Under the pieces are notes generated by a model. The model was given only the letters and a program-made list of their open reading frames with translations, did no database searches and was not told where the DNA came from. Positions 29,879-34,335 of a DNA stretch of 64,000 nucleotides are shown here, piece after piece. The position numbers and the translations under genes were made by a program. The DNA lies in NCBI GenBank assembly GCA_963711255.1, contig CAVQDO010000034.1, positions 10,553 to 74,552 on the forward strand. Direction: 5' to 3'. Origin of the DNA: an uncultured Gammaproteobacteria bacterium. Lineage in GTDB: Bacteria > Pseudomonadota > Gammaproteobacteria > SZUA-229. Position 1 is the first letter of the stretch, and each line of letters starts with the position of its first letter.

Positions 29879-30616
29879 ATGTTTCCTGATTTTACGATAC
29901 TGGATATAGCGCTTAGCGCGTTGCTGTTTATGTGGGCAGGCTTTGTCCGCAGTGGCCTGGGTTTTGGCGGCGCTGCCCTGGGGCTGCCTTTCATGCTGTT
30001 TATTTATAATCAGCCGCTTTACTGGCTGCCGCTAATTGGTGCCCACCTGCTGTTTTTTTCCGCCTTAACACTGCGCACCCGCTTGAACAATGTTAACTGG
30101 GAGTATTTAAAATCCTCCCTTTACTACATTATCCCGCCGGCACTGGTCGGGGTATTTGGTTTGATTAGTCTGCCCAATCTGTGGATTGTTACTTTCATAT
30201 ACAGTATTACCCTGTTCTATGCCGTGATGTGGCTGTTGAATAAAAGTATTCACAGTGAAAGTGCCTGGATAGACCGGTTTCTATTGATCTTTGGCGGTTA
30301 CGTTGCCGGTACCTCGTTGACTGGTGCGCCGATAATGGTTGCGGTATATGTGCGTAATGTTGTTCAGTCACAATTACGTAATACGCTTTTTGTGCTCTGG
30401 TTTATTTTAGTCAGTATTAAAATGACTACGTTTGCGGCTTTAGGTGTGGATTTGAATATTATGACTGCCCTTGTCTTGCTGCCGGTTGCGGCGATTGGGC
30501 ATTTTATTGGATTGAAGACGCATGACATTATTTTGCAGAATGATGTTTTGTTTAAGCGGGTTATTGGTGGCATGTTGATGGTTGTTAGCGGGCTGGCGCT
30601 TTGGAATATTTGGTAG
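29879..30616 (+). CDS. TauE/SafE (DUF81) family sulfite/anion exporter-like membrane protein
   Basis: 245 aa with 7-8 TM helices and the Gly-rich first helix motif GFVRSGLGFGGAALGLPFMLF. Confidence 0.75.
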   Translation: MFPDFTILDIALSALLFMWAGFVRSGLGFGGAALGLPFMLFIYNQPLYWLPLIGAHLLFFSALTLRTRLNNVNWEYLKSSLYYIIPPALVGVFGLISLPNLWIVTFIYSITLFYAVMWLLNKSIHSESAWIDRFLLIFGGYVAGTSLTGAPIMVAVYVRNVVQSQLRNTLFVLWFILVSIKMTTFAALGVDLNIMTALVLLPVAAIGHFIGLKTHDIILQNDVLFKRVIGGMLMVVSGLALWNIW

Positions 30617-30618
30617 TT

Positions 30619-31350
30619 TTTTATTTCCCGTTTGTATTTACGATTGGCGTTAATATTTTCTTTTGGTTGCTTACTTAGGCTTTGCGGTTCTCGCACCGCG
30701 GGCGAGTTACTCTTTTGTCAGCAGCAACAAAAGAGTAACCAGAAAAGTGCCGCCCCGACTTGTTTGCCCCGAGAAAAGCACTCGGGGTTCCTGACTTTGG
30801 GTGCATTGCCTACGAGCCGTGCTGATGCGCCGTCCGGGCGCAGCATCACTAAATCCGCCGTCCATGGCGGATTTGCTCTACCAATGCGCCCAAAGTCAGC
30901 AAACAAAAGGGGGGTAAACAAAGAAAAACAAGAAACGAAACAAAAGCTTCTCCAGCTATGGCGCTACGCGCCATGTTTTTTGCTGTGTTCTAGTTGGTGC
31001 TATTGACTCTGTTGTTGACTTTGACTTTTCCGCCTTCGATAGCTGAATTTGCCAACACGTAGAGCAAATCCGCCATGGACGGCGGATTTAGCCACGCTGC
31101 GCCCGGACGGCGCATCGGGGCGGCTCGGGCCAAAGTAAGCATACACACCTTAAGCAAACACCAACGCCAAAAGAACAGACACCCTCAAATTCAGGTTCCC
31201 CGGACGCTTCTCCGGGGCTATCGAGTTCGCGGCGGCCTTTTCTGGTTACTCTTTTGGGCTGTAGCAAAAGAGTAACTCGCCCGCGGTGCGAGAACCGCAA
31301 TGCCAAAGTATGCAAACCATAGAAAATATTGACGCCAATAGGAAATAAAA
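30619..31350. repeat. complex GC-rich nested inverted-repeat element, non-coding (arms 30619-30881 and 31059-31350; central spacer 30882-31058)
   Basis: The two arms are reverse complements, with perfect blocks of 34 bp (30684-30717 vs 31266-31299), 20 bp, 21 bp and 32 bp (30850-30881 vs 31059-31090). Each block is itself a local hairpin. Local GC is ~55-60% against ~42% for the window. All ORFs through this region are low-complexity and look spurious. Confidence 0.85.
30958..30982 (+). terminator. terminator-like hairpin ATGGCGC-TAC-GCGCCAT followed by GTTTTTT, inside the central spacer of the palindromic element
   Basis: 7-bp GC-rich perfect stem, 3-nt loop and T6 run, read from the sequence. 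A tandem TTGACT x3 (31003-31026) follows. Confidence 0.5.
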
Positions 31351-31449
31351 AACGCAAAACCCCAAATACCCACAAACAACTATACGCACACAACTAAATC
31401 TACCTTAAAATACCCCGTTCAATGAGTACAAAAGTTAAAAACAAGAAAA

Positions 31450-34335
31450 ATGTCTGAATTTATCCCCGGTCAGCGTTGCATCAGCGATGCTGAACTACAA
31501 ATGGGGCTGGGCACCATTTTAACGGTTGAAGCACGGACCTTAACTGTACTATTTATGGCGACCGGCGAAACCCGTACCTATGCAATACAAACAGCACCGC
31601 TCACACGAGTGCTTTTCTCCATCGGTGATACTGTAACCAGTCACGAAGGTGTCAGTGTTACGGTTAAAGAAGTAGCCGAGAATCATGGTCTTGTCACCTA
31701 CTCCGGCATTGATAGTAATGGCAAGGTGTATCAGCTTGAAGAAGCCGAACTTGATAACTTTATACAATTGAATCGGCCCTCCGAACGATTGTTCAATGGC
31801 CAGATTGATAAAGACAACTGGTTCGAACTGCGTTATCAAACGCTTTTGCATAAGAGTCGACTGGCTAAGTCGGATCTATACGGTTTAGTGGGCAGTCGCA
31901 CCAGTCTAATATCTCATCAGCTATATATCGCTCATGAAGTAGCCAATCGTTATGCTCCGCGTGTGTTACTGGCTGATGAAGTTGGCCTCGGAAAAACCAT
32001 AGAGGCCGGCCTGATTCTGCACCACCAGGTATTAACCGAACGTGCGAAGCGACTATTAATTGTTGTACCGGAAACCCTTATCCATCAGTGGCTGGTAGAA
32101 ATGCTGCGCCGCTTTAATCTTCATTTCAAAATTTTTGATAAGAACCGCTGTGATGACTTAATCCAGGAAAACGATTTTGATAATATTTTTCATTCTGAAC
32201 AGTTTGTTTTGTGCAGTATTGATTTCCTGGTAAGTAACTCAGCTGTTTTTGAACAGTGTGTGATGGGTGAATGGGATTTGATGGTGGTTGATGAGGCTCA
32301 CCATCTGCAGTGGTCAGCAGAAGAACCCAGCATCGAGTATATGGTGGTTGAGCAGTTAAGTTACCACACCAAGGGTGTTTTACTGCTGACAGCTACGCCC
32401 GAGCAGCTTGGCAAGGAAAGTCATTTTGCACGCTTACGATTACTTGACCCCAATCGTTTCCCTGATTACCAGCAGTTTATCGAGGAAGAAGAAAACTATG
32501 AGCCTTATGCTCAGCTTATAGAAGATTTACTGAGTGGCCAGGCGTTAAGCGATACGGATTTCGAGCTTATTCATGCCACGATTCAGGAAGGTGATAATTT
32601 AAGCTTGCTTAATCAAATGCAGGATAACGGCAGCCAGGATGAGGAGCAAATGCAGCATGCTCGTACCGAACTGGTTGAACACCTGCTTGATCGTCATGGC
32701 ACAGGCCGTGTTTTATTTCGAAATACCCGCTCTGCAGTTAAAGGCTTTCCAGAAAGAAAACTTGAAAGTTATGCCCTGCCAATGCCTGAAGCCTACACGC
32801 AATTACAGGCTGAACAGGCTATCCAGTTATTAACCCCCGAGGTTCTGTATCAACAACAGGGTCTTGCAGAGCACTGGACTAAAATTGACCCAAGAATAAA
32901 CTGGTTGAGCAAAAAATGTGCTGAACTTTATCCGCAAAAAATTCTGGTTATTGCTGCTAATGCTGATACAGCGCTGGAAATTACACAGTACTTTAAAACC
33001 CAGACTGGATTGCATGCTACAGCTTTTCATGAAGGACTGAGCATTGTTGAACGTGATCGCGCCGCTGCATTTTTTGCGGATTTTGAAACGGGAAGCCAGA
33101 TCCTGGTATGTTCGGAAATTGGCAGTGAAGGCCGAAACTTTCAGTTTGCTCACCACCTGGTTGTTTTCGATTTGCCGATTAACCCGGATCTGCTGGAACA
33201 GCGTATAGGCCGACTCGATCGTATCGGGCAAAAAAACAGCATCGTTATTCATGTGCCTTACCTGGAAAATTCTGCCCAGTCAGTCTGCTTCCAGTGGTAT
33301 AACGAGGCGCTTGAAGCTTTCGAGCATACCTGCCCGGCGGGACATTCTGTTTACAAACGGGTACAGCATGATCTCCACCAGGCGTTACTTGAAAGCCAGA
33401 ACAATGAACTCAATGAGACATTACTGCAGCAGTTAATTAAATCTTCCCGATCACACTATCTTGAAATGACCCAGTCTCTGCAAAATGGTCGTGACCGATT
33501 GCTGGAATATAACTCCTGCCGCCCGCGCATAGCGAATGATATTAAATTACGGGCCGAAGCCGAAGATGAGCATTCGCTACTGGCTGACTATATGGAAAAC
33601 GTTTATGACTGTTTTGGTATAGATAATGAGCTTCATAGTGATGGTTGTTTCATTATTCGTCCAACCGAGCACATGATTAATCATTTCCCCGGACTTTCAG
33701 AAGAAGGCATGACTATTACCTATGAGCGTAATATTGCACTTAGTTTTGAAGATGCGCACTATATTACATGGGAGCACCCGTTAACCAATAACGCTATTGA
33801 TATGGTGTTAAGCAATGAAAATGGCAATACCTCGGTTACTGCGGCAGATTACAGTAATGTCAAGGCTGGCAGTGTTTTACTGGAATGCCTGTTTTCGCTG
33901 GAAAGTGCACCGATAGAAGAGTTGCAAAGTAACCGGTATTTACCGCCAACCATGATTCGCGTGGTTTGTGATGAACGTGGTGCAGACCATAATAGCAAGC
34001 TTTCACACGAAGTAATTAACAGCACTCGTCAGTTTGTTGATAGCGGTGTTGGAAACAAAATTGTTAAGGCGAAAAAGAAAATTCTAAAAGCCATGCTTAA
34101 GCGCAGTGAAAAATATGCCGAGTTAAAGTCGGCAAAAATTCTGGCTCAGGCTCAGCACTCAGCAACAGAGACATTATCAATTGAAATTAATCGATTAAAT
34201 GCGCTTTCTAAAGTTAACCCGAATATCCGGGCCGACGAAATAAATTACTTTGAGAAACAGTTGTCGAAGTTAACCAGGGTCATTGATGCGGCTAACTTAC
34301 GGCTGGATGCGGTACGGGTTATTGTAGCAACCTGA
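31450..34335 (+). CDS. rapA: RNA polymerase-associated protein RapA (HepA), SNF2-family ATPase
   Basis: 961 aa with the RapA N-terminal domain and SNF2 helicase motifs (LLADEVGLGKTIEAG, DEAHHL, helicase C-terminal QRIGRLDRIGQ). Confidence 0.95.
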   Translation: MSEFIPGQRCISDAELQMGLGTILTVEARTLTVLFMATGETRTYAIQTAPLTRVLFSIGDTVTSHEGVSVTVKEVAENHGLVTYSGIDSNGKVYQLEEAELDNFIQLNRPSERLFNGQIDKDNWFELRYQTLLHKSRLAKSDLYGLVGSRTSLISHQLYIAHEVANRYAPRVLLADEVGLGKTIEAGLILHHQVLTERAKRLLIVVPETLIHQWLVEMLRRFNLHFKIFDKNRCDDLIQENDFDNIFHSEQFVLCSIDFLVSNSAVFEQCVMGEWDLMVVDEAHHLQWSAEEPSIEYMVVEQLSYHTKGVLLLTATPEQLGKESHFARLRLLDPNRFPDYQQFIEEEENYEPYAQLIEDLLSGQALSDTDFELIHATIQEGDNLSLLNQMQDNGSQDEEQMQHARTELVEHLLDRHGTGRVLFRNTRSAVKGFPERKLESYALPMPEAYTQLQAEQAIQLLTPEVLYQQQGLAEHWTKIDPRINWLSKKCAELYPQKILVIAANADTALEITQYFKTQTGLHATAFHEGLSIVERDRAAAFFADFETGSQILVCSEIGSEGRNFQFAHHLVVFDLPINPDLLEQRIGRLDRIGQKNSIVIHVPYLENSAQSVCFQWYNEALEAFEHTCPAGHSVYKRVQHDLHQALLESQNNELNETLLQQLIKSSRSHYLEMTQSLQNGRDRLLEYNSCRPRIANDIKLRAEAEDEHSLLADYMENVYDCFGIDNELHSDGCFIIRPTEHMINHFPGLSEEGMTITYERNIALSFEDAHYITWEHPLTNNAIDMVLSNENGNTSVTAADYSNVKAGSVLLECLFSLESAPIEELQSNRYLPPTMIRVVCDERGADHNSKLSHEVINSTRQFVDSGVGNKIVKAKKKILKAMLKRSEKYAELKSAKILAQAQHSATETLSIEINRLNALSKVNPNIRADEINYFEKQLSKLTRVIDAANLRLDAVRVIVAT

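Follow-up and report, generated by a model that had tools for sequence, protein, structure and literature searches.

Two divergent extended TwoAYGGAY RNA genes with a constrained, pseudoknotted 3′ core between tauE and rapA of an uncultured gammaproteobacterium

In a 64-kb stretch of DNA from an uncultured gammaproteobacterium (contig CAVQDO010000034.1; the whole stretch is called the window below), two inverted arms spanning 30616–31358 occupy the interval that separates the stop of a TauE-family gene (30616) from the rapA start (31450). We found that this interval is a pair of back-to-back extended TwoAYGGAY genes, that is, a known kind of element represented here by a member from outside Pseudomonas. 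The most constrained part of the locus is the pseudoknotted 3′ core and not the GGA-loop hairpins. Taken as a whole, the locus is probably best explained as two divergent, paralogous genes for structured RNAs, each made up of a 5′ module, possibly a decoy, and a 3′ core.

TwoAYGGAY was reported as a probable RNA of unknown function from gamma-proteobacteria, Clostridiales and the human gut, and was scored by its discoverers as not cis-regulatory (Weinberg et al. 2010, PMC2864571). Both of its loops were noted to match the CsrA-binding motif, and a decoy role was proposed (PMC4333381, 2015). The main text of a recent preprint (Li et al., September 2026, bioRxiv 10.64898/2026.09.22.753630) describes extended TwoAYGGAY divergent doublets in Pseudomonas, with an architecture of three extra hairpins, a basal stem that is elongated and a 3′ pseudoknot. 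According to the same text, Pseudomonas genomes carry a median of 11–23 copies, and 68% of neighbouring pairs are divergent doublets (median spacing 249 bp, interquartile range 163–312 bp). Short repeats in the form of a GMTBT(T) 5–6-mer array lie upstream, and 100–200-nt repeats or REP arrays follow downstream at some loci; extreme copy-number variation is reported there, and a mobile-element-like expansion is argued for. That main text makes no mention of a triplex, of non-TwoAYGGAY partner modules, of synteny or of the core outside Pseudomonadota. A triple-helix core with exchangeable heads goes beyond the published descriptions that we found, the preprint being represented among them by its main text.

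Identification of two extended TwoAYGGAY RNAs

An earlier sequence-only reading of this DNA, which had recognised the arms from the letters alone, proposed an Rfam scan of each arm. When the window was scanned against Rfam 15, exactly two matches exceeded the curated threshold, both to TwoAYGGAY (RF01731, gathering score 43 bits) and one in each arm. The left match occupies 30785–30905 on the minus strand (60.6 bits), the right one 31035–31162 on the plus strand (53.8 bits), with a gap of 129 bp between them, below the interquartile range given for Pseudomonas. Since the matches lie on opposite strands, the two copies are divergent and read outward. Hairpin 1 shows the loop AUGGAC, an exact AYGGAY, and hairpin 2 the loop CGGAC, which keeps GGAY without the A (both arms, all 22 homologues). 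A common basal stem surrounds both hairpins; it measures 17 bp in the left arm, while the right arm retains the outer 9 bp only.

Each arm runs 3′ into a conserved extension beyond the Rfam model, and this extension has the features of the extended form: H3, H4 and the stem of PK2 are its three added hairpins, the basal stem is elongated, with helix P0 enclosing the TwoAYGGAY module together with H3, and a 3′ pseudoknot is present (both PK2 and PK1 covary, and either may be the one described in Pseudomonas). The copies form a divergent doublet within less than 2 kb, minus strand first and plus strand second. RNAfold gave –119.2 kcal/mol for the left copy (z = –7.0) and z = –2.5 for the right copy.

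Covariation supports the fold on the outward-reading strands

The fold was evaluated on an alignment of 22 full-length copies with the TwoAYGGAY 5′ module (type A) and on a second alignment of 60 partial homologues covering the 3′ core. The full model comprises P0, P1, P2, hairpins 1 and 2, H3, H4 and two pseudoknots. Among the full-length copies, 96.2% of cells were paired, compared with 34–45% when the partners were slid, and compensatory change occurred in 38 of the 81 pairs; none of 500 shuffles reached the observed values. The 60 3′ cores behaved alike (93.8% of cells paired, about 48% with slid partners). GGA was invariant in both hairpin loops of the 22 type A copies.

Individual helices were assigned as follows. 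P0 joins the segment immediately 5′ of the basal stem to the segment immediately 3′ of H3 (in the window, the left arm has UUGUUUG/CAAACAA and the right arm UCGAUAG/CUAUCGA). A closure of the left RNA by its 5′ leader and 3′ tail, as suggested by RNAfold, was dropped, since P0 covaries with the post-H3 segment. P(-1) is formed by a C-run upstream of P0 and the GGGG before the core, with 81 of 87 cells paired and with UCCC/GGGA and CCGC/GCGG variants. In PK1, the GGCN that directly precedes the linker pairs with the opening nucleotides of the H4 loop; PK1 is 99% paired and includes an A-U/C-G swap, and among metagenomic copies all four Watson–Crick forms are seen at its variable pair (G-C 20, C-G 13, U-A 12, A-U 11). 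PK2 is a 22-nt H-type pseudoknot in which UCGC/GCGA is interleaved with GCGGK/MCCGC, both stems showing covariation (e.g., CCGAC/GUCGG, GUGGG/CCCAC). An alternative pairing of the GGCG upstream of H4 with a downstream UCGCC was discarded, since UCGC covaries with GCGA inside PK2.

The homologues also indicate the strand. G-U pairs outnumbered A-C mismatches by 71 to 20, and the fold is therefore selected on the outward-reading strands, namely the minus strand in the left copy and the plus strand in the right. Together with the opposite-strand Rfam matches, this disagrees with the convergent pair of small RNAs that the sequence-only reading had considered. Its view that the arms reflect selection on secondary structure and not a simple recent duplication is borne out: the blocks shared by the arms are family-wide conserved helices and loops, and covariation in the homologues is strong, thus supporting the structured-RNA inference.

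A candidate six-layer triple helix in the 3′ core

The short PK1 stem is joined to H4 by an 8-nt linker, C-UUUUCU-G, which is the mirror image of the H4 pyrimidine strand and thus matches the purine strand AAAAGA in parallel. Such a parallel match of a pyrimidine segment to a purine strand is the signature of U.A-U and C+.G-C major-groove triples. In the left copy of one orthologous locus (L066), all three strands have indeed changed together. We tested the triplex by scanning metagenomes for cores in which a linker U replaces C, leaving the helix free as any Y6/R6, and obtained at least 120 loci. The matches listed contain 74 unique cores. Among these, the parallel register was isosteric at 440 of 444 layers, with 70 of 74 cores perfect, while shifted or antiparallel registers reached 54–78%. 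A linker C stood opposite 72 of the 74 purine-strand G residues. With U at linker position 6, none of the 74 kept the canonical G at the matching purine position.

At least 10 haplotypes were present among the matches listed and the window's own, at least nine of them consistent besides the canonical one. The variants among the matches listed include AGAAAA/UCUUUU, AAGAAA/UUCUUU, AAAAAA/UUUUUU, GAAAAA/CUUUUU, AGAAAG/UCUUUC, AAAGAA/UUUCUU, GAGAAA/CUCUUU and GGAAAA/CCUUUU. The lower stem GUUAC/GUAAC varied in a compensatory manner as well (GGUAC/GUGCC, GUCAC/GUGAC). In one doublet the partners carried two different haplotypes, each consistent internally, indicating that the interaction of linker and helix is intramolecular. 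The T-rich words upstream of the copies showed no obvious covariation with the linker haplotype. The parallel covariation implies that the 3′ core would fold as an H-type pseudoknot with a six-layer triplex. For its geometry we infer six triples, after which a single nucleotide would cross the groove of the 5 bp that remain (GUUAC/GUAAC).

In three MAGs, copies (L014:1345–1474, L037:2202–2331 and L075:1–100) have H4 and PK2 intact, and an unrelated hairpin (UUUUGCUCCCGGCAAAAUUAGU) 5′ of ...CUG replaces the linker. These copies without a third strand may be truncation or recombination products with a common breakpoint.

Homologues combine the core with different 5′ modules

Homologues were sought in 185,579 species genomes by means of the 12-bp hairpin GTTACTCTTTTG-N(4–16)-CAAAAGAGTAAC. 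The scan returned 92 loci, in which the flanks of the hairpin were conserved too. Most belong to metagenome-assembled genomes (MAGs) of uncultured Gammaproteobacteria, to Cycloclasticus and to a Methylococcaceae MAG; others were found in Ca. Soleaferrea massiliensis (Clostridia, at least 19 loci), an Oscillospiraceae MAG and Bacteroidota/Ignavibacteriales MAGs. Several MAGs held 6–9 copies each. The TwoAYGGAY 5′ module was present in only 11 of 100 copies. A different module, type B, with a long stem and the conserved motif GUCUGAGC-hairpin-GCGAGUU, was found in 41, and the Firmicutes and Bacteroidota copies carried yet other 5′ modules. At gathering thresholds, Rfam recognised four matches in 18 loci, all of type A, and a permissive Rfam search of a type B partner yielded only meaningless miRNA-like hairpin matches. 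Core pairs less than 2 kb apart in the fetched loci were divergent in 21 cases, tandem in two and convergent in none; their median spacing was 549 bp, and 530 bp separate the cores in the window.

The core is composed of P(-1), the GGCN stem, the pyrimidine linker, a GUUAC-Y6/R6-GUAAC helix and, usually, a second compact pseudoknot. It is conceivable, at a little below an even chance in our estimate, that this core is an autonomous RNA module of several phyla, not yet described as such, with a six-layer triple helix; it would be the constant part of a large family of multi-copy bacterial RNAs, to which interchangeable 5′ cassettes are joined and for which TwoAYGGAY is one cargo. The cassettes would then include TwoAYGGAY, type B (GUCUGAGC-hairpin-GCGAGUU) and others in Clostridia and Bacteroidota, and the triple-helix domain, be it a stability cap, a handle for a conserved protein or a core with a catalytic or sensor role, would carry the biology of the family.

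No head is commoner than type B in the loci fetched or among GC-rich metagenomic copies, and Rfam has no family for it. Its basal stem measures about 23 bp; a bulge GGCUUUC, a stem of 9 bp and a loop bearing the motif, in which tandem G.A pairs are possibly formed, belong to the module as well. Examples are L044:4490–4720 (minus strand), L066, L082 and L213:2330–2480 and 2640–2770. At four loci (L039:5503–5900, L068:6832–7229, L078:4665–5062 and L079:4557–4954) the type A partner has the haplotype AGAAAA/UCUUUU and the type B partner AAAAGA/UUUUCU; heads and triple haplotypes may be linked within these genomes. The isolate Ca. Soleaferrea massiliensis AP7 (NZ_CCYH01; L002–L091) contains its loci, at least 19 and all intergenic, with an identical linker and 12-bp helix. 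PK1 covaries there, e.g., at L011:6700–7010 (AUGGCC with GCCACG; ACGGCC with GCCGCG), and neither the 5′ module nor the 3′ end is related to those of the gammaproteobacterial copies. Copies of the Soleaferrea type in termite-gut metagenomes have the haplotype UUUUUU/AAAAAA.

History of the tauE–rapA locus

Comparison of the tauE–rapA region in relatives, also proposed earlier, revealed the doublet in five genomes and its absence from one more distant genome. The order agcS-tauE-[doublet]-rapA is found in L044, L066, L082 and L047 (RapA 77–85% identical) and in L213 (76%), and in all five MAGs a divergent doublet fills the spacer. The 5′ modules differ: the window has A+A, L044 and L082 have B+A, and L066 and L213 have B+B. 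Mean pairwise identity amounts to 0.87–0.93 in the two cores, 0.78–0.86 in the adjoining coding ends and 0.38–0.63 in spacers, 5′ modules, H3 segments and tails. The core, with an identity above that of the adjoining coding ends, is under purifying selection.

In L214 (GCA_054016175.1, JBPMDN010000094.1; RapA 67% identical) the site is empty, with a tauE–rapA spacer of 108 bp (2049–2156), indicating gain or loss of the doublet (about 740 bp) in one piece at some depth. Gain and loss are indistinguishable, with no presence/absence polymorphism among close relatives (five carriers, L214 empty), and this empty site is an outgroup useful for dating the event. Since then the doublet has been inherited vertically, its core strongly constrained and its heads replaced. 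The two arms of the window share derived states, for example AAAUCCGCC-AUGGAC in hairpin 1 compared with AAAUUCGCC-AGGGAN or AUGGAC in other genomes, which suggests that the copies converted each other or that conversion acted within the genome.

The string ATACCCA-N-AACAACTATACG (31379–31401), which precedes the rapA start by about 50–70 nt, is (near-)invariant in the four aligned species and has a related counterpart at the empty L214 site. It is probably the native promoter or leader of rapA rather than part of the element.

Sequence organisation of the interval

The neighbouring genes are as stated by the sequence-only reading, with TauE (PF01925, Pfam) upstream and RapA (NF003426, 1285 bits) downstream. 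The two inverted arms are real: they were recovered both by a repeat search and by arm-versus-arm BLASTN (69 nt at 91% plus 170 nt at 83%). Their symmetry extends out to 30616/31353, and the non-repeated centre measures about 128–177 bp, depending on where the arm ends are set. Exact blocks of 20 nt (30728/31237), 21 nt (30824/31096) and 32 nt (30850/31059) were all verified; a block of 34 nt is exact as well and starts at 30684 on the left, but its reverse complement on the right lies at 31265–31298 and had been placed one base off, at 31266–31299. Each of the four blocks is confined to the interval within the window, and with no match in 100 shuffles they are far beyond chance. The apparent palindrome results from the divergent pairing of two paralogous RNA genes.

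Other particulars had to be amended. A GC content of 55–60% in a genome of about 42% had been given for the interval; we obtained 50.5% over 30619–31350, 57% in the arms only and 43.9% in the whole window. The interval was said to contain no credible open reading frame (ORF), which holds insofar as the ORFs of 124 and 101 amino acids that do overlap it span the repeat and have no Pfam match. Loops of 10 nt on the left and 8 nt on the right had been read in the long hairpin, but the left stem is really 13 bp long with an 8-nt loop (I6), so that both loops have 8 nt. These are related in sequence (left UGCUGCUG, right GGCUGUAG, RNA sense), and one of them pairs in part within a pseudoknot; the contrast of identical stems with different loops was thus overstated.

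The motif GCCAAAGTA(A/T)GCA(T/A)AC (family D2) occurs three times, at the start of the right 58-nt insertion (31129–31144), in the right 3′ tail (31302–31317) and in the left basal stem (30889–30904), and is inverted at 30668–30680. The right-arm insertion may have originated by recombination with a tail or stem segment.

Divergent promoters presumably lie within the central spacer. Its A-rich tract (30901–30946) corresponds, as the reverse complement, to G-initiated T-rich words (GCUUUU GUUUC GUUUCUU ...) upstream of the left copy, and the right copy is preceded by an equivalent run, the TTGACT/GACTTT words at 30997–31029. All type A copies of the 22-copy alignment have a T-rich tract upstream. 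The three TTGACT copies noted previously are present (31003, 31015, 31021), as is the terminator-like hairpin with its T6, at 30957–30981; this hairpin would stop read-through from tauE. The coordinates of all features are compiled in Table 1.

Table 1 Features of the tauE–rapA interval in window coordinates
Feature	Position	Strand	Basis or remark
Left RNA gene (extended TwoAYGGAY, type A), conserved part	30684..30915	minus	5′ end near 30915, core ends 30684
Left hairpin 1, 9-bp stem, loop AUGGAC (plus-strand GTCCAT, 30860–30865)	30851..30874	minus	Rfam alignment; 97.7% paired; AYGGAY/GGA loop
Left hairpin 2, stem GUG.UG.UGCGCC, loop CGGAC (30832–30836)	30819..30849	minus	97.9% paired, 5 compensatory pairs
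Left basal stems	30788..30906	minus	inverted repeat I4 and covariation
Left P0	30900–30906 with 30760–30766	minus	98.1% paired, 5/7 pairs compensatory
Left P1	30882–30899 with 30791–30808	minus	96.2% paired, 11/17 pairs compensatory
Left P2	30875–30878 with 30814–30817	minus	
Left H3, hairpin CCCCGAG/CUCGGGG, within extended basal stem	30767..30787	minus	95.9% paired
Left PK1 with proposed triplex	30706..30751	minus	covariation
Left S1a, GGCA	30748–30751	minus	
Left linker, C-UUUUCU-G	30740–30747	minus	
Left H4, 13-bp helix	30706–30718 with 30727–30739	minus	
Left H4 loop, UGCUGCUG	30719–30726	minus	first 4 nt pair with S1a
Left PK2, compact 22-nt H-type pseudoknot, UCGC/GCGA interleaved with GCGGU/ACCGC	30684..30705	minus	both stems covary
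Left 3′ tail	30616..30683	minus	common to right arm (I1); mean cross-species identity 0.60, poor conservation
Right RNA gene (extended TwoAYGGAY, type A)	31030..31298	plus	RF01731 and alignment of 22 copies
Right P(-1), CCGC	31030–31033	plus	
Right P0	31036–31042 with 31218–31224	plus	
Right P1	31043–31051 with 31186–31194	plus	
Right hairpin 1, loop AUGGAC (31075–31080)	31066–31089	plus	
Right hairpin 2, loop CGGAC (31104–31108)	31091–31121	plus	
Right insertion, ~58 nt, lineage-specific, replaces inner 3′ strand of basal stem	31127..31185	plus	gap in the other 21/21 type A copies
Right H3	31198–31217	plus	
Right 3′ core	31234..31298	plus	mean identity 0.93 in four species, above adjoining coding sequence
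Right S1a, GGCC	31234–31237	plus	
Right linker, UUUUCUG	31238–31244	plus	
Right H4	31245–31256 with 31265–31276	plus	
Right H4 loop, GGCUGUAG	31257–31264	plus	
Right PK2	31277–31298	plus	
Right 3′ tail, C-rich, G-poor	31299..31358	plus	common to left arm (I1); cross-species identity 0.38
Central spacer	30907..31034	no strand	sequence
Terminator-like hairpin and T6	30957..30981	plus only	not conserved in relatives
Inverted repeat I1	30624–30717/31265–31358		94 nt, 86%; repeat search
Inverted repeat I2	30813–30881/31059–31127		69 nt, 91%; repeat search
Inverted repeat I3			44 nt, 77%; repeat search

Proposed function and alternative explanations

We propose that the two paralogous genes would give RNAs of about 230–270 nt, read outward from promoters in the 115–130-bp spacer, the left on the minus and the right on the plus strand. 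In each RNA, a long basal stem (P0/P1/P2) presents the two GGA-loop hairpins (AUGGAC, CGGAC) as the 5′ module. In the core, the 5′ C-run closes on GGGG as P(-1), followed by the H-type PK1 and the compact PK2, and the linker UUUUCU would occupy the major groove of the 12-bp GUUACUCUUUUG/CAAAAGAGUAAC helix as U.A-U and C+.G-C triples. The GGA loops would bind a CsrA/Rsm dimer and make the RNA a decoy, and the triple-helix and double-pseudoknot core would serve as a nuclease-resistant 3′ cap or protein handle in place of the absent intrinsic terminator. The exact blocks common to the arms would reflect constraint together with gene conversion between the copies.

Confidence differs between these parts. 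Transcription of both units is very probable. Binding of a CsrA/Rsm dimer by the invariant GGA loops, with the RNA as a decoy, is a possibility that we hold tentatively. That the core protects against exonucleases or acts as a protein handle is more doubtful still; this role is suggested by the conservation, which ends right after PK2, and by the lack of a terminator behind it.

Several points weigh against our explanation. Transcription is read from sequence only, the triplex is deduced from covariation, and covariation alone cannot distinguish an RNA from single-stranded DNA of the same strand. Neither a sigma-70 consensus promoter in the spacer nor an intrinsic terminator after either copy was found, and no GacA/UvrY box (TGTAAG-N6-CTTACA-like) was detected in the interval with up to three mismatches. 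The six Pseudomonas GMTBT 5-mers gave one match per spacer strand, compared with 0.86 per 128 nt of background. The right copy, with its 58-nt insertion and weak folding (z = –2.5), may be decaying. At the orthologous locus, the GGA-less type B module replaces one or both TwoAYGGAY modules, so that CsrA titration is not the conserved function of the locus; what keeps the doublet in place is more likely a matter of the core than of CsrA.

Among the alternatives, a non-autonomous mobile DNA element (miniature inverted-repeat transposable element- or REPIN-like), whose structure would serve transposition and not an RNA, its hairpins being bound in their DNA form by a trans-supplied transposase, would account for the multi-copy nature of the family, for the empty site in L214 and for the copy-number variation and expansion put forward in the main text of the Pseudomonas preprint. 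We nevertheless regard it as improbable. No target-site duplication is present at 30616/31358, where ATTTGGTA adjoins the symmetry on the left and GCAAAACC on the right; ORF clustering around the 92 loci returned no transposase or recurrent protein gene beside the copies but only housekeeping synteny and spurious ORFs reading through the repeat; and no copy was found on plasmids (BLASTN of the interval against PLSDB) or in viruses (canonical H4 pattern in IMG/VR). Moreover, relatives have heterotypic arms, the excess of G-U pairs is strand-specific, and two pseudoknots and a triplex appear to be selected in copies that are inherited vertically under purifying selection. The REPIN/BIME-like element of the sequence-only reading is hence a loose fit: multiple copies and one empty site agree with it, but the lack of a target-site duplication, the complex RNAs of about 230–270 nt and vertical inheritance across at least five species do not. 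A similarly low probability attaches to cis-acting parts of mRNAs, the right copy being the 5′ leader of rapA and the left, in antisense, a stabiliser or terminator in the 3′-UTR of tauE. The right copy does face rapA from about 150 nt upstream in all five orthologous loci, with no terminator in between, a terminator-like hairpin follows the left arm on the plus strand, and Rfam labels RF01731 'Cis-reg'. Elsewhere, however, copies adjoin unrelated genes (gltB, purH, mutY, polA, valS and others) in either orientation; the discoverers' own scoring (PMC2864571) was to the contrary; the fold of the left copy is selected on the strand opposite tauE, and the central terminator is not conserved.

A strand-specific fold would also arise if the same structure formed in single-stranded DNA, during replication or for an HUH-type enzyme. 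T.A-T and C+.G-C triples and G-T pairs are equally possible in DNA, and neither a promoter nor a terminator was found, but a 22-nt H-type pseudoknot with 2-nt loops and GGA-loop hairpins matching the motif of an RNA-binding protein are typical of RNA, ORF clustering found no HUH or RAYT gene near the copies, and divergent pairs around a common spacer resemble divergent transcription units. We rate this explanation as very improbable. Least credible, to the point of being nearly negligible, are a single snap-back precursor of double-stranded RNA, a convergent pair of antisense small RNAs and an origin or iteron DNA site. Although the arms are 83–91% complementary in the window, the orientation is divergent, no iterons or replication genes lie nearby, and the internal helices of each arm covary independently. 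The long snap-back RNA, suggested by the sequence-only reading, is excluded because the arms of relatives carry different 5′ modules: in L044, L082, L066 and L213 they differ over most of their length, with only the 3′ core in common, and complementarity is not conserved.

TwoAYGGAY has been an orphan RNA since 2010, with tens to hundreds of copies in many Pseudomonadota genomes. The present locus shows the extended, divergently paired form outside Pseudomonas and its stable inheritance across species at one chromosomal site. With a triple-helix core and exchangeable heads, the function of the family becomes experimentally approachable, and the three-way parallel covariation provides a concrete, cheaply testable hypothesis of a six-layer bacterial RNA triplex. 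Should the core be a stability or protein-recruitment module, it could be useful for engineering stable bacterial RNAs.

Comparison with known systems

REPIN/REP-RAYT, BIME, ERIC and Correia elements are likewise intergenic, GC-rich, hairpin-forming and multi-copy, often in inverted pairs. The present units differ in being about ten times longer, multi-helical and pseudoknotted, with partners that can differ, with neither RAYT or transposase genes near the loci nor a target duplication, and with conservation of the locus across species. [quoted passage not shown] Unlike those RNAs, however, the units have only two GGA loops, no GacA/UvrY box, no intrinsic terminator and no sequence homology to them, and relatives hold GGA-less modules at the same locus. 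A csrA gene was found neither in the window nor in the fetched loci, which are genome fragments only.

In the telomerase RNA core and in the SAM-II and preQ1-II riboswitches, a short S1 is followed by a U-rich loop 1 that lies in the major groove of S2 and forms U.A-U triples. By analogy, the H-type topology proposed here is the same, but S2 has 12 bp and six consecutive triples including C+.G-C, no template or ligand role is evident, no consistent gene follows downstream, and the copies in genomes number thousands. ENE elements (PAN, MALAT1, transposable elements of plants and fungi) share the U.A-U major-groove triplex in a repetitive-element-like RNA without a conventional 3′ end signal, and a similar protection from decay may be suggested. 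Whereas the U-rich internal loop of an ENE clamps a 3′ A-rich tail, here the internal pyrimidine linker of a pseudoknot would supply the third strand, and a second pseudoknot comes after it.

Closest are the TwoAYGGAY RNAs themselves. The Rfam model RF01731 covers only about 120 nt of each unit of about 230–270 nt, the loop of hairpin 2 is CGGAC and not AYGGAY, and the right basal stem is broken by the 58-nt insertion; yet both arms score above threshold, two GGA-loop hairpins stand on a common basal stem, and the host is a gamma-proteobacterium. As far as the extended TwoAYGGAY of Pseudomonas is described in the main text of the preprint, it differs in its host, which is here an uncultured gammaproteobacterial lineage of about 44% GC, in its spacer (median 249 bp compared with 115–130 bp) and in its GMTBT 5-mers and downstream REP arrays, the former not enriched here and the latter absent, with no direct repeat of 100–200 nt in 30500–31500. 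It agrees with the present units in H3, H4, the PK2 stem, P0 enclosing H3 and the 3′ pseudoknot, as well as in divergent pairing, an upstream T-rich tract of short words and multiple copies.

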